Below are positions 2,164 to 8,666 of a stretch of DNA of 10,321 bases, piece by piece. This DNA comes from a virus (taxonomy: Duplodnaviria > Heunggongvirae > Uroviricota > Caudoviricetes). The stretch is from IMG/VR virus record IMGVR_UViG_2802429251_000008, positions 1 through 10,321 of that record. One strand, given 5' to 3'. How positions within the stretch are numbered: position 1 is the first letter of the stretch; each line of letters begins with the position of its first letter. Below the pieces are notes generated by a model. That model saw only the letters and a program-made list of their open reading frames with translations, did no database searches and was not told the origin of the DNA. A program made the position numbers and the translations under genes.

Positions 2164-2352
2164 TCACGAGGACAGAAGTTTCTCGCAATTAAAATTTATC
2201 AGCTTTACTTTCTGCTCTCTGGAAACGCCTGCTTCTTTTTTCCCTGAGAGCATTTTTTCGCATTCTGATTTCGTTAATTTAGATTTTGAATATCTTGTCC
2301 AGTTAGTAGGAGTGCCACCTTCCTTTTCAATAGTGGCAGTAATTTTATACAT
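2164..2352 (-). CDS. Small hypothetical protein (Rac ydaC position)
   Basis: 62 aa from ATG at 2352 with strong SD GGAGGT 4 nt upstream; start overlaps the lar stop by 8 nt (translational coupling). Assignment by position only. Confidence 0.5.
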   Translation of the reverse strand: MYKITATIEKEGGTPTNWTRYSKSKLTKSECEKMLSGKKEAGVSREQKVKLINFNCEKLLSS

Positions 2353-2575
2353 GAACACCTCCATTATTATTTCCAGTAGTTCGTTTATTCCATCTTTCGA
2401 GTGCTTCTTTTTCACTTCCACTATAGCCGGTTCGGGATTCGCATCCGTTACACTTTGCGCGGTAATATCCTGAAATGGCTTTCACCGTTACTGATGGACA
2501 ACCACAAAATGGACATGGTTTGACTTTTGTGTATCGCACTGGTTTTTCTCCTGTGAGCTTTGTGGCTGCGCTCAT
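2345..2575 (-). CDS. ralR: Lar/RalR-family restriction-alleviation protein (Cys4 zinc-binding)
   Basis: Contains CPFCGC...CNGCES Cys4 motif typical of the Lar family; sits between exo and the small ORF as ralR does in Rac. Start chosen at ATG 2575 (SD GGGGAG 8 nt upstream), overlapping the exo stop as ATGA. Confidence 0.7.
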
Positions 2576-3252
2576 TTCCATTGCTCCCCAAATACAAAAC
2601 CAATTTCAGCCAGTGCCTCGTCCATTTTTTCGATGAATTCTGGCACCATCTCGTCAAAACTCGCCATGTACTTTTCATCCCGCTCAACCACGACATAATG
2701 CAGGCCTTCACGCTTCATACGCGGGTCATAGTTGGCAAAGTACCAGGCATCTTTTTGCGTCACCCACATGCTGTACTGCACCTGGGCCATGTAAGCCGAC
2801 TTTATGGCCTCGAAACCACCGAGCCGGAACTTCATGAAATCCCGGGAGGTGAACGGGCATTTCAGCTCAAGGCCGTTGCCGTCATTGCATAAACCATCGG
2901 GAGAGCAGGCGGTGCGCATAGTCTCGTCACGATAGATGATCGGGGATTCAGTAACATTCACGCCGGAAGTGAACTCAAACAGGGTTCTGGCGTCGTTCTC
3001 GTACTGTTTTCCCCAGGCCAGCGCCTTAGCGTTAACTTCCGGAGCCACACCGGTGCAAACCTCGGCAAGCAGGGTGTGGAAGTAGGACATTTTCATGTCA
3101 GGCCATTTCTTTCCGGAGCGGGGTTTTGCTATCACGTTGTGAACTTCTGAAGCTGTGATGACGCCGAGCCGTAATTTGTGCCACGCATCATCCCCCTGTA
3201 CGATAGCTCTCACGTCGATCCCGGTACGCTGCAGGATAATGTCCGGTGTCAT
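2572..3252 (-). CDS. exo: Lambda exonuclease (Red alpha)
   Basis: 226 aa, near-identical to lambda Exo from memory ([17 protein letters not shown]...GFVFGEQW); start overlaps the bet stop. Confidence 0.95.
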
Positions 3253-4034
3253 ATTGCCACCTTCTGCTCTGCGGCTTTCTGTTTCAGGAATCCAAGAGCT
3301 TTCACTGCTTCGGCCTGTTTCAGTTCTGACAATGCATGAATGTCGCGGCGAAATATCTGGGAACAGAGCGGCAATAAGTCGTCATCCCATGTTTTATCCA
3401 GGGCGATCAGCAGAGTGTTAATCTCCTGCATGGTTTCATCGTTAACCGGAGTGATGTCGCGTTCCGGCTGATGTTCTGCAGTGCATGCGGTATTTTCGAC
3501 AATGCGCTCGGCTTCATCCTTGTCATAGATACCAGCAAATCCGAAGGCCAGACGGGCACACTGAATCATGGCTTTATGCCGTAACATCCGTTTGGGATGC
3601 GACTGCCATGGTCCGATGATTTCTTTGCCTTCTCGGGTTTTGAATGGTTCGCGACGGCACTCATCCATCCACTCGGTAACGCAGATCGGATGATTACGGT
3701 CCTTGCGGTAAATCCGGCATGTACATGATTCATTGTCCTGCTCAAAGTCCATGCCATCAAACTGCTGGTTTTCATTTATGATGCGGGACCAGCCATCAAC
3801 GCCCACCACCGGAACAATGCCGTTCTGCTTATCAGGGAAGGCGTAAATCTCTTTCGTCCACGGATTAAGTCCGTACTGGTTGGCGACGATCAGCAGCGCG
3901 ATGAATTGCGCATCGCTGGCATTACCTTTAAATGCCGTCTGGCGAAGAGTGGCGATCAGTTCCTGCGGGTCGACAGAATCCATGCCGACGCGTTCAGCCA
4001 GCTTCCCGGCCAGTGTTGCAAGTGCTGTACTCAT
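3249..4034 (-). CDS. bet: Lambda Bet single-strand annealing protein (Red beta)
   Basis: 261 aa, near-identical to lambda Bet from memory ([27 protein letters not shown]...). Confidence 0.95.
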
Positions 4035-4039
4035 TCGTT

Positions 4040-4339
4040 TTATACCTCTGAATCAATATCAACCTGGTGACGAGCAATGGTTTCAACCATGTACCGGATG
4101 TGCTCCGCCACACGTTCCTGAAATTCAACATCGTCATCAAATGCGCGACTGATTGCCTGTTTGCTGGCACCGTGGCGTTGCAAATGGTCGATGCAGAGCG
4201 ATTCAAACAGATGCTGGGGCAGACCTTTTTCCAGGTCGTCCGCCAGCGCCGTTTCTTTTTCTTCGCGAACGATTTGCTGGTAGTGGCGTGACCATGCCTG
4301 CTCTTCAATGCGATCAAAAATTGGGCATGTACTCATCAT
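4040..4339 (-). CDS. gam: Gam, RecBCD inhibitor (short GamS-length form)
   Basis: 99 aa; from residue 13 onward matches lambda Gam C-terminal 86 residues (SRHYQQ...HQVDIDSEV). The first 12-15 residues differ from lambda and the upstream frame is occupied by the ORF672 3' end. Confidence 0.9.
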
Positions 4340-6332
4340 CCGTCACCCCAAAATTTTCAAGTTTGTTTGCAATCATCATTGCAATACCCGGAATTAATGG
4401 CGCTGAGGCTATACCCGCAGGATTTGCACATAAACCGTAAACCGCTGCAATCACCACTTGTCTTTTCCAGTCGAGTTTTTCTAATGATGAAGCTGCTGCT
4501 TCGCCAGTTTCATCACTGCAATCGCGATGCGGATCGCTGCCATCGTTCTCCTTGTGCGGATGTTCAGCACCTTCCATTTCCTCCAGACCTTTTTCCTGAT
4601 ATTCATTCTGATTTTCTTCATTAAAGGTTTTCTGATACGTTGCGTCGCCCATCACCGCGCCGCAGTCAGGACAGTTGCCGCCGCCAGCCTGACCGCAGGC
4701 GATGCAAACTTTCTCCGTTTCCTGTTGTTGCACTACTGGCTCAGGCTGTTTCGTTTCTGGCTCGTTTTGTTGCGTATTTGGGTCGTTCTGTTCCGCTTTT
4801 TGGTCGTTATGTTCCGTTTCTGGCTGATTCTGGTACACAGAGTCGCGGGTCTGGATCCCCTTAACCCATTTCGGATCATTCGGGTCGCTAATCCCTTCAA
4901 CAAATTCTCCGCGAGAGGCAGCCAGTAATTTGTCTGCATCGACAGGATTTTTGGGCGGAATGTTTTTCCGGGCTTCATGGAGTTCTGCCCGCAGTTTCTG
5001 ATATTTCGCATCAACAGAATTTACCTGTGACTGAGCATCCAGCGACTGCGTGTCCTGATGATGTTCAGTTGCATCCGGTTCCACTGTTTCAGCCGTTGCC
5101 TGTTCATCTGCCATTGCGCAAGATGGTTGCAGTTTTTCTTCATCATCCTGTTTTTCTTCTTCTGTTACACGCTGCGGCATCGGGGCAGAGGAACGACCGC
5201 AGGCAATATCCACGATTTCTGGATCAGGGTTGGCATGATCAGTTTCAGTCAGTACTTTGTTTAGATATTCAGTGACGTGTGCGGGGATAACCTCGATCCC
5301 AATTGGTGCTTCTTTTACGGACGCAACCACGATGGCGCGGGAATAATCCAGCCCGCCAGGCATGGTGATGAATTTGTCGCGGAAAACAGAAAAGGGCGGT
5401 TTATTTTCAGCGATAATTTCCTCGACACGTTTAGCGTGTGCCGGATGAAGGTTATAAATGTCCACGTCCATTGAACGAGCCAGTACGCCAGTGGCTACGT
5501 CGCGCGCCAGTGACGTCAGATCGTGAACGAAACCTTCGCCGCGATCGGTGAGGTTCCCGCCGCCAGCATTAGCGCCGGAAGCCGTGCGCGTGATGCGTGA
5601 AACACGATTTCCTTTCATCCACTCTTTTGTCAGCAGACCACGATCGGTGTAGTCTGCGTCCAGGTATGCTTCGAAAAAAGCAGTCATCAGCCCCAGGCTT
5701 GAATTGCCTGGATTAGGGAAAACTCTGTCAGTATCACGCACCAGTTTGTGGAGATCGCGAATTTCCAGCGGGTCGAGCAGGCTGGTTTTGTGGGAAACAG
5801 CCAGGGCAGTAACAGCTGGTAGTTCTTCAGCTCGTGCAATGTGTAATGCCTGGAGTTCGTCGCGTGAAACGTGCGTTACCGGTTTTTCGCTGCCGTGTTG
5901 AGCAAGCCAGCGAATGGGCAGCTCCTGACCGGAAATCGGGAGTAGCATATTCTCCTCAATCTCCGTCATGTCTTCGCCATTAACATTGGTATTGTCAGTG
6001 CTGGCTGGTTTGTCCTGCGCAGAGGATGAGGGCGCGATAAATACCATTGTGATGCCATCTTCCCCGCCTTTTTCGTAACGGTTGCAGAATTCCGTATCAA
6101 ATACGCCCTCTGGTGGAAGGTCATCAACAACGGGCAAATTGACGCGAACAGGTTTTTTAAAGTCATCTTCATCGTAGCCAGCATCGTCAATCGCAACAGC
6201 ACCACGGGATATGGCAATGGATAATTTTTTCGCTTCAGCCCAGTAGAAACCGCCTTTAATACCGAGACGTTTTCTTACTTTGTCATTTTTTGCTTCGTAA
6301 TACAGTGGGTAAACTTGTTTATCGGTGCTCAT
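4314..6332 (-). CDS. Large uncharacterised early-operon protein; possible RecE N-terminal-region relative without a nuclease domain
   Basis: 672 aa uninterrupted; SD GAGG upstream of ATG 6332; stop overlaps gam start by about 26 nt. Globular N-terminal region, acidic low-complexity middle, five heptapeptide repeats, CxxC-x9-CxxC zinc ribbon, and a Gly/Ala/Pro-rich hydrophobic C-terminal tail. Occupies the recE slot of Rac. Confidence 0.75.
4736..4850. repeat. Degenerate 21-bp tandem repeats inside ORF672
   Basis: Units such as GGTCGTTCTGTTCCGCTTTTT / GGTCGTTATGTTCCGTTTCTGG on + strand; encode [35 protein letters not shown] on the minus-strand frame. Confidence 0.6.
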
Positions 6333-6401
6333 TGTTTTTTAACCTCAACTCAGATTAAAATTACTGCGAGTGATGAATAAATGTCCTAGGTTCTTCACTC
6401 A

Positions 6402-6432
6402 GGCCTGCACAGTGTGCAGGCTTTCTTTTTTT
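6402..6432 (+). terminator. Plus-strand-oriented hairpin plus T-tract inside the leftward operon
   Basis: 9-bp arms GCCTGCACA / TGTGCAGGC (6402-6420) then TTTCTTTTTTT (6422-6432), abutting the racC-like stop. Oriented against the surrounding genes. Confidence 0.4.
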
Positions 6433-6707
6433 CAGATTTCACCTTTTAATTTCATTGCAATCAGAGTTGCCAGAAATTCGGCTTTTTTTTCTGCGGGCAG
6501 ATTCTTTCCTATGTGCACCAGACACATTTCTTTAACACCATCGTTAAGTGTTTTAACGTTGCCTGATGGACCGTCGATATCAACCACAGTGAATGGGGTT
6601 TCTTTATTTTCTGTCTTAATCACGTAGCCAATACGCTTTCCTTCCAGGGTAACTTCGTGAACAATGTCATCAGTAGTAACAACAGTGGCTTCATAACTGG
6701 TAATCAT
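6432..6707 (-). CDS. racC: RacC-like small protein
   Basis: 91 aa from ATG 6707 (SD AAGGAG 6 nt upstream); size and position match Rac racC. Symbol assigned by size and synteny, not sequence recall. Confidence 0.55.
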   Translation of the reverse strand: MITSYEATVVTTDDIVHEVTLEGKRIGYVIKTENKETPFTVVDIDGPSGNVKTLNDGVKEMCLVHIGKNLPAEKKAEFLATLIAMKLKGEI

Positions 6708-6952: not shown

Positions 6953-7173
6953 CACCATGACTCCGCCTTTACAGGTAAACCATCACGACCGAGGAAGACT
7001 TTAATCATGCAGTCAGAAATGCATGTTTTTGTAGTCAGGTTACGAATATAAAGTTTTCGCTTTTTAATATTGTTTGCCGAGGCGATATATGTCCGGCCTT
7101 CATGAAGAACATAATCACCAGGAGTCACACACTGACGTGGTATTTCATCAGTTCCGAAGTGATGTGCAATCAT
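6952..7173 (-). CDS. kilR: KilR-like small protein (candidate FtsZ/cell-division inhibitor)
   Basis: 73 aa from ATG 7173 (SD GGAG 6 nt upstream; the track start at 7185 overlaps the SD). Size and order match Rac kilR. Function inferred from Rac. Confidence 0.55.
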
Positions 7174-7248
7174 AATTATCTCCATTTTTACAAATGAACT
7201 TTGTTGATGCGGTGCCTGGCGCCTCCAGGTGACTGCAACCAGTTAACA

Positions 7249-7277
7249 ATTACAGTCGGCTTTCCCACCCAAACCAA
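7249..7277 (-). promoter_or_regulatory. Candidate sigma70 promoter for kilR-ydaE-racC
   Basis: Minus-strand -35 TTGGTT (7277..7272), 17-bp spacer, -10 TGTAAT (7254..7249); the leader would contain the CCTGG-n5-CCAGG hairpin. Confidence 0.25.
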
Positions 7278-7346
7278 TAAGGACTAACATGACTTTTAAC
7301 TGTGCCGCGTGCGCTTAGCCGCATTCACCGCATCACAAAATTCACT

Positions 7347-7392
7347 TTAAAAAGGGGCGGCAGGGCAGCCACGGAGTAGAACTGATGCCGCC
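7347..7392 (-). terminator. Candidate leftward intrinsic terminator
   Basis: On minus strand: stem GGCGGCA (7392..7386) / TGCCGCC (7362..7356), 23-nt loop, then CC + TTTTT (7353..7349). Long loop lowers confidence. Confidence 0.3.
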
Positions 7393-7516
7393 AAAGACTA
7401 CACATAGCAATGTCGTTATTTACAACCGGAGGCGCACTCCCACCATTTAAATTTAACAGACAAGACCGACTCTTTATGAATACCGGAAATGCACCTTCGT
7501 GTTGTGCGCCTGTCTT

Positions 7517-8204: not shown

Positions 8205-8666
8205 CTACTGGTTACGTTTCTTTAGTGCCAGCATGTTCTCGAAGGCTTCCTCGTAGAGCTTGTTTAGTCCACGTAGCTGGTTAAGGAGTTTGGCTTTTTC
8301 TGACGCAGGTAGAATCTCGAAGAGGTTAAGTAACTCAGCCTGTTCTTCATTGACCAGCCTCCATCCTTTGCCTGAAAAGCTATCATCATAAGTATCTGAT
8401 GATCTTACATAATTCATTAAGTCTTTAAGGTCTTCTCGAATGTCCTCTGGTTTTACCTTTAACAGAGCCGCAAATTTTAGCGCAGCGTCGGTATTTACCG
8501 GTATCTTGCCGTTCAGATACTGGCTAACGGTGCCTTGAGATTCGAATCCCAACAACTCAGCCGCCAGCTCTTGAGTCAGCTTCAGCTCTTTTTTTCTTGC
8601 ATTCCATGCGGCTTTTAAATTCTTGCTCGCTTCTGGAGTTGCAATCACTTCGCGTGTTTTTTTCAT
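8205..8666 (-). CDS. racR: XRE-family HTH prophage repressor (RacR-like)
   Basis: 153 aa; N-terminal HTH (LTQELAAELLGFESQGTVSQYLNG); divergent from ydaS-ydaT exactly as racR is in Rac. Confidence 0.8.
   Translation of the reverse strand: MKKTREVIATPEASKNLKAAWNARKKELKLTQELAAELLGFESQGTVSQYLNGKIPVNTDAALKFAALLKVKPEDIREDLKDLMNYVRSSDTYDDSFSGKGWRLVNEEQAELLNLFEILPASEKAKLLNQLRGLNKLYEEAFENMLALKKRNQ

Follow-up and report, generated by a model that had tools for sequence, protein, structure and literature searches.

For the hairpin and T-tract located between racC and the adjacent gene ORF672, the best overall explanation is a Rho-independent terminator: it would end a small non-coding RNA encoded in the spacer between the two genes. 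We hold this explanation with good confidence for the window, i.e. the whole stretch of 10,321 nucleotides of DNA analysed here. That the element terminates a short plus-strand RNA, with promoter and ends as in the orthologous locus of E. coli K-12, is highly probable; for K-12 the attribution is based on published RNA-end maps, and for the window on an identical promoter and the same layout. The window accordingly appears to encode an allele of the K-12 RNA, denoted type A in the following.

Genetic context of the element

The window represents a Rac-type lambdoid prophage of E. coli, adjoining yebY and the SdsR/RyeA sRNA pair, and prophages found in mouse and chicken isolates are 98.7% identical to it. 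The SdsR/RyeA pair (462–606, both strands) is situated directly beside the integrase end, showing that the prophage is inserted next to a host sRNA locus. The early-left operon is encoded on the minus strand in the order kil, ydaE, racC, the RecE-family ORF672, and lambda-type gam, bet and exo, followed by ralR, xis and int. The annotated racC gene (6432–6707, minus strand) terminates with the stop codon TGA at 6432–6434, and its translation of 91 aa is near-identical to K-12 RacC. ORF672 (4314–6332, minus strand) encodes 672 aa with a match to the Pfam family Exonuc_VIII (8e-38), and in a genome with 98.7% identity RefSeq labels it “RecE family exodeoxyribonuclease”. The spacer between racC and ORF672 is 99 bp long, and the predicted RNA is contained wholly within it, reading against the early-left operon.

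Several further features of the region deserve mention in their own right. In ORF672 the Pfam domain is confined to the N-terminal part (aa 52–189), and no nuclease domain was detected. Downstream of ORF672, lambda-type gam, bet and exo (2572–4339, minus strand) take the place of recT, with an overlap of 26 nt between the start of gam and the end of ORF672. Judged from sequence, ORF672 and gam/bet/exo together combine RecE-type with Red-type recombination modules in a mosaic arrangement. The RalA antitoxin sRNA was identified opposite ralR (2168–2346, plus strand, 223.8 bits), and an RNA of the DicF family at 7355–7406 on the minus strand, with a score of 60.9 bits versus an Rfam gathering threshold of 48. 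The latter RNA has a terminator-like hairpin of its own (7372–7357), is adjoined by a sub-threshold match to STnc100 (7166–7365, minus strand), and is the homologue, at 83% identity, of an ncRNA in K-12 Rac that carries the annotation kilS and reaches only 39.1 bits against the DicF family. This similarity suggests that KilS is a DicF relative located upstream of kil.

A probable terminator directed against the surrounding genes

The terminator hairpin, AGGCCTGCAC-AGT-GTGCAGGCTT (6401–6423, plus strand), comprises 10 pairs, six of which are G-C and one a G.U pair (6402/6422), and is closed by a loop of 3 nt. The U-tract TCTTTTTTT (6424–6432) follows directly 3′ of the stem. Its last base, T6432, also belongs to racC: read on the plus strand, the stop codon TGA appears as TCA, and T6432 is the T of this triplet. 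Hairpin and U-tract are found 0–9 nt from this stop codon. Within the hairpin, the 8-bp arms GCCTGCAC / GTGCAGGC form a perfect palindrome around a spacer of 3 bp.

In a consensus scan of the window the hairpin ranked first among terminator-like sites, on the plus strand only. A scan of our own, applied to both strands, gave the same result. It accepts stems with 9 or more pairs, 6 or more of them G-C, provided that 7 or more of the next 9 positions are T; the hairpin is the sole such site on either strand. When the whole window was shuffled 300 times with its dinucleotides preserved, any such site turned up in only 3 of the shuffled sequences. When read on the minus strand, the stem is reduced to 8 pairs, C.A replacing the G.U pair, and the sequence that follows, CUGAGUGA, is not a U-tract. 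It should be noted that the 61-nt region folds on both strands, with −16.6 kcal/mol (z = −2.7) on the plus strand and −17.3 kcal/mol (z = −3.0) on the minus strand. The top rank in the scans, the restriction to the plus strand and the rarity among shuffled sequences confirm the first-pass annotation, which had described a strong hairpin with a T-tract at 6402–6432 that reads as a terminator on the plus strand only; its coordinates are right to within one base. Likewise, its remark that the terminator opposes the direction of the surrounding genes is borne out, with racC, ORF672 and gam/bet/exo all encoded on the minus strand. No plus-strand ORF in the ORF list of the window ends near the hairpin.

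RNA ends mapped at the K-12 orthologue

E. coli K-12 MG1655 displays the same gene order, and in the equivalent place beside its racC stop codon a hairpin of different sequence is found, TAGCCTGCG-CCATA-CGCAGGCTA followed by TTTCTTTC. In the Term-seq data of Adams et al. 2021 (PMC7815308, Supplementary file 1), a plus-strand 3′ end is reported at 1417486 and classed as “antisense” to racC. Its reads amount to 185,664 on average (LB, OD 0.4) and to 146,140 in a second condition sheet, compared to 66,698 for sokC on the same strand; the gene name racC occurs three times in this file, which has three condition sheets. The TRS study (PMC10687069), performed with an independent method, lists a plus-strand 3′ terminus at 1417483–1417495 with a dominant position of 1417487, described as “Antisense racC”. 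A signal of 0.992 is given for this terminus, which ranks 151 versus 225 for sokC (PMC10687069). The mapped K-12 3′ end corresponds to a U located 4–5 nt past the stem, inside the U-tract. No coordinate starting with 14174 is present in the Rho-termination table of the Term-seq study (Supplementary file 2 of PMC7815308).

The 5′ end of the K-12 RNA is provided by the dRNA-seq study of Romero et al. 2014 (PMC4681348), where a forward start site at 1415447 (older coordinates) is one of 728 class I start sites in E. coli, class I denoting TAP-enriched sites at the leading edge of transcription. The sRNA table of the same study holds a row “t29”, “recE-racC”, with the orientation <- -> <-, spanning 1415447–1415590 with a length of 143 nt and citing Raghavan et al. 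2011. The offset between the coordinate systems was calibrated on fnrS (1407153 in the list of PMC4681348 versus 1409129 in NC_000913.3) and amounts to 1976 bp. Converted in this way, the K-12 start is found at 1417423, a G (position 7424 of locus copy L002) that follows 8 nt after TAAAAT. From this start to the 3′ end the RNA measures 64 nt, antisense to the racC–recE spacer. The two 3′-end maps (PMC7815308, PMC10687069) thereby give 64 nt versus the 143 nt in PMC4681348; the longer value may be a coverage-based estimate or reflect about 1% read-through.

Together, the K-12 data show a primary transcript (5′-triphosphate start) that is abundant, made in the repressed lysogen, and has its 3′ end at a canonical intrinsic terminator. 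Of the two explanations offered by the first-pass annotation, a short antisense transcript ending at the hairpin is supported by this mapped primary start and strong 3′ end of the K-12 orthologue, a conclusion that extends to the window by homology. K-12 RefSeq carries no gene annotation for the recE–racC antisense RNA, and our literature searches returned no name for it and no study of it. EcsR1 was considered as a name and rejected, as it denotes the unrelated uspF–ompN RNA.

A separate entry in the same start-site list (PMC4681348) concerns the repressor gene racR. A class I reverse-strand start at 1418267 (old numbering) converts to about 1420243 on the minus strand (about 10244 in L002) and precedes the racR start codon by about 2 nt, which suggests that the racR repressor mRNA is nearly leaderless in K-12, as is lambda cI mRNA from PRM. 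In the window, the repressor gene is located at 8205–8666.

Promoter block and predicted small RNA

Upstream of the RNA, a conserved block of 33 bp (6330–6362) is identical between the window and K-12 at all 33 positions. A role on each strand is assigned to the block: on the plus strand it contains the predicted promoter of the antisense RNA, and on the minus strand the Shine–Dalgarno sequence and the ATG of ORF672 (GAGG as the reverse complement of 6343–6346, and ATG at 6330–6332). The promoter candidate consists of a −35-like hexamer TTGTTT (6332–6337), which overlaps the ORF672 start codon, and a −10 hexamer TAAAAT (6356–6361), separated by a spacer of 18 nt. Scored with our own approximate PWM, TTGTTT-N18-TAAAAT has the top sigma-70-like score within the 500 nt upstream of the hairpin, both in the window and in K-12. 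A strict promoter consensus scan made no call upstream of the hairpin; the −35 hexamer matches the consensus at 3 of 6 positions only, and the spacer is 18 nt. The K-12 start position was predicted from sequence and later found to match the published start site.

When the K-12 start site and 3′ end are transferred to the window, the predicted small RNA, i.e. the type A allele of the K-12 recE–racC antisense RNA, spans 6368–6431 on the plus strand with a length of about 61–64 nt, probably starting at about G6368 and ending in the U-tract at about 6428–6431. Folding of this RNA yields two stem-loops with −26.8 kcal/mol and z = −5.0, and none of 200 shuffled sequences was as stable. The K-12 RNA likewise folds at z of about −5. 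The 3′ stem-loop is the terminator hairpin; the predicted 5′ stem-loop, GAGUGAUGAA / UUCUUCACUC (6368–6400), has a loop of 13 nt and folds at −9.1 kcal/mol with z = −2.3, significant by itself, whereas its K-12 counterpart is weaker (z = −0.75, not significant). The 5′ stem-loop as a part of the RNA is therefore to be taken as suggestive only. As inspected by eye, no ORF is conserved between the two RNA types, type A holding only a frame without a stop codon and type B one of 9 codons. A search with the Rfam 15 covariance models gave no match with E ≤ 1, neither at 6368–6431 nor at the K-12 orthologue.

Sequence variation and distribution

We compared 212 copies of the locus from genomes and viral contigs, which include 21 variants of the hairpin. 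These variants fall into two deep types, type A represented by the window and type B by K-12; E. coli M8 (NZ_CP019953), M6, M9 and M11 are further carriers of the type A allele. The degree of identity between the two is strikingly uneven along the locus. Next to the invariant 33-bp block, identity falls to about 49% in the RNA body that precedes the hairpin; the terminator hairpin is identical at 15 of 23 positions and the U-tract at 5 of 8, and the racC 3′ end reaches about 90%. The U-tract is T-rich in both types and longer in the window. The hairpin core GCCTGC/GCAGGC is common to the window and K-12, and in the remainder of the stem pairing is kept by changes on both sides (A-U to G-C and A-U to U-A). 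At least 8–9 contiguous stem pairs are kept in 21 of 21 variants, and each variant has kept a T-rich tail, although this sequence is non-coding. Alignment of the variants with MAFFT and RNAalifold recovers the terminator stem, most type A rows being missing from that alignment.

One-sided changes allow the two strands to be distinguished. Within the terminator stem, four variable positions are G.U-compatible on the plus strand and mismatched on the minus strand, as compared to one position that behaves the other way. In the 5′ stem-loop, assessed by eye, two one-sided changes give G.U pairs on the plus strand and one breaks the pairing on both strands. These changes weakly favour the plus strand, bearing in mind that the positions may not be independent events. 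Likewise, the compensatory changes are weak proof of selection on the RNA, because the comparison covers only two deep sequence types and perfect palindromes can self-correct by template switching; covariation counts would overstate the evidence, given two deep lineages and loop inversions at the palindrome. The loop itself is found in both orientations among relatives (e.g. L011 and L102), as AGT/ACT in type A (6411–6413 in the window) and as CCATA/TATGG in type B. Such loop inversions at a perfect palindrome are a typical signature of template-switch mutation.

The RNA bodies of types A and B each occur with either type of recE, so that all four combinations are found, and both flanks of the 33-bp block are mosaic. 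The block is therefore identified as a junction at which modules are exchanged. A query of 111 nt comprising the element matched 1766 of 5426 complete E. coli genomes. In 268 genomes at least 80% of the query was matched, corresponding to the full-length type A element; for the remaining genomes, the 33-bp block alone was aligned, at 100%, among the matches listed. With a median of one copy per genome (maximum three), always beside recE, the distribution of the query differs from that of a dispersed repeat of the REP/BIME kind.

Proposed function and alternative explanations

With regard to function, it is possible, and here proposed tentatively, that the RNA acts in cis on the racC/recE-family junction of the early-left transcript. 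The predicted RNA is perfectly complementary to the untranslated racC–ORF672 stretch of the leftward transcript, i.e. the 5′ untranslated leader of ORF672 is the complement of the RNA. Pairing of the RNA with the mRNA would give a duplex of about 60 bp, a presumptive substrate of RNase III, and cleavage would uncouple the upstream racC, left with a 3′ hairpin, from the recE-family/gam/bet/exo/ralR message. Additionally, a busy head-on promoter on the ribosome-binding site of ORF672 may interfere with leftward polymerases. By either route, the recombination and toxin genes would stay silent in the lysogen despite leaky read-through. Blocking of the ribosome-binding site by the RNA itself is unlikely, because the RNA, with its start about 22 nt upstream of the Shine–Dalgarno sequence on the mRNA, stops short of it by that distance. 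The combination of a diverging body with a kept promoter, architecture and terminator is expected of a cis-antisense RNA, the target of which changes with the RNA itself, and argues against a shared target in trans.

The latter argument bears on the reading that the RNA is real but trans-acting on host or other phage mRNAs, like DicF or the EHEC prophage anti-sRNAs, and that its position between racC and recE is incidental. Such a role would be in line with the abundant, constitutive presence of the RNA in the K-12 lysogen, where the operon targeted in cis is repressed, and with the prophage-encoded trans-acting sRNAs in the same window (DicF-like, RalA). We nonetheless regard it as unlikely: the unpaired and loop sequences are almost wholly different between types A and B (about 49% identity), which renders a shared trans target unlikely, complementarity of the RNA elsewhere in the window is limited to 10-mers at chance level, and the recE–racC antisense RNA is absent from the sRNA tables derived from Hfq RIL-seq that we searched. 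A similarly low probability is assigned to an element acting mainly on the minus strand, along the lines of the second explanation offered by the first-pass annotation, where an intercistronic hairpin would shield racC mRNA against 3′ exonucleases or form a processing site setting the levels of racC versus recE, the plus-strand RNA being incidental. The hairpin does fold on that strand as well, with 8 pairs and the free energy given above, it is located 10 nt past the racC stop codon, and one variant (L118) keeps the closing pair on the minus strand only. However, an mRNA-stabilising hairpin needs no preceding A-rich run, yet this run is kept in all variants. Furthermore, most of the one-sided stem changes break the pairing on the minus strand, the G.U pairs working on the plus strand only, and in K-12 both ends of the plus-strand RNA are mapped, the 5′ end being primary and the 3′ end very strong. 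A minus-strand hairpin is at the same time compatible with the terminator of a small antisense RNA as the best explanation, and the two are not mutually exclusive.

A transcription unit without a dedicated function is quite unlikely in our assessment, albeit parts of the data can be described in these terms. An AT-rich ribosome-binding region would then happen to be a promoter, and the terminator would stop spurious antisense transcription into racC, ydaE and kil. Translation of recE is also initiated within the 33-bp block, and this role alone could account for the conservation of the block; pervasive antisense starts are common in E. coli (PMC4681348). Against this stands the strong hairpin with its U-tract, kept about 35–40 nt past the start in two otherwise unrelated RNA bodies, as well as the rank of the K-12 RNA (151) among the strongest 3′ termini of the cell. 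The perfect 8-bp palindrome could furthermore be taken for a DNA site of a dimeric protein, or the inverted repeat for the relic terminator of a lost plus-strand gene. Both notions are extremely improbable, as the sequence of the inner arm and the length of the spacer (3 versus 5 nt) differ between the types while pairing is kept, no plus-strand ORF ends nearby, and the unit is actively transcribed from a start of its own; a relic is contradicted by the mapped start immediately upstream.

A more far-reaching version of the cis-acting role, which we consider improbable and put forward as speculation, draws on a preprint that describes RacC as the blocker and RecE as the trigger of a retron toxin–antitoxin defence. 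The RNA would here be a dedicated switch between the counter-defence genes racC and recE that sets the blocker-to-trigger ratio by cutting the early-left transcript, with the mirror hairpin remaining on the racC message, and the type A and type B bodies would be specificity alleles. If so, co-resident or superinfecting Rac-like phages would be insensitive to each other's RNA.

Implications

Roughly one in three complete E. coli genomes, K-12 included, carries the module as defined by a match to the 111-nt query. The 3′ end of the K-12 RNA is among the stronger ones of the cell, yet the RNA has neither a gene name nor an Rfam family. Its promoter overlies the recE ribosome-binding site, and the RNA separates racC and recE, the blocker–trigger pair reported in the preprint. 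RecET recombineering and the classical sbcA phenotype both go back to recE. Should the RNA gate this junction, it would explain silencing of recE, recT and ralR in Rac beyond repressor control, and a defined antisense control point would be added to a much-used recombination module. Should it be functionless, the locus would still illustrate cleanly how a promoter can arise on a ribosome-binding site and be closed off by a terminator dedicated to it.

Comparison with known systems

Lambda OOP and P22 Sar are short cis-antisense RNAs of temperate phages, about 65–80 nt in length, that are expressed from their own constitutive promoters against an early operon and end at an intrinsic terminator. 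OOP overlaps the 3′ end of cII and acts via RNase III cleavage of the paired mRNA, and Sar is located in an intercistronic spacer and covers the ribosome-binding site of ant. The predicted RNA of the window resembles both in being short, in having its own predicted promoter and an intrinsic terminator, and in its antisense location inside a temperate-phage early operon. Unlike OOP and Sar, it covers an untranslated spacer only and ends about 22 nt short of the Shine–Dalgarno sequence, and the likeness is one of layout, no similarity in sequence being expected.

Antisense RNAs of the FinP/Sok type consist of two stem-loops and a U tail. The predicted layout of the window RNA is similar: its two stem-loops are separated by hardly any single-stranded sequence, and the RNA is fully complementary to a 5′ leader. 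It differs in that there is no toxin or traJ-like target and in the weakness of the 5′ stem-loop in K-12. The arrangement also departs from that of a type I toxin–antitoxin system, as the complement of the RNA is an untranslated spacer where no ORF is listed. With RalA (RF02694), the RNA shares its origin as a plus-strand sRNA of a Rac-type prophage that opposes a leftward operon. RalA, however, is encoded at another locus, is 179 nt long and serves as the antitoxin of RalR, and no Rfam match was obtained at the hairpin locus.

The closest relative is the unnamed recE–racC transcript of K-12 (“t29”, PMC4681348; PMC7815308; PMC10687069), which occupies the orthologous position and has the identical 33-bp block, the hairpin core, a U-rich tail and a similar length in common with the window RNA. 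The two are distinguished by a body of about 49% identity, by the top of the hairpin and its loop, and by the longer U-tract of the window. The K-12 RNA is known only in the form of rows in high-throughput tables. The predicted window RNA is best filed as a further, uncharacterised antisense RNA of the OOP/Sar kind.
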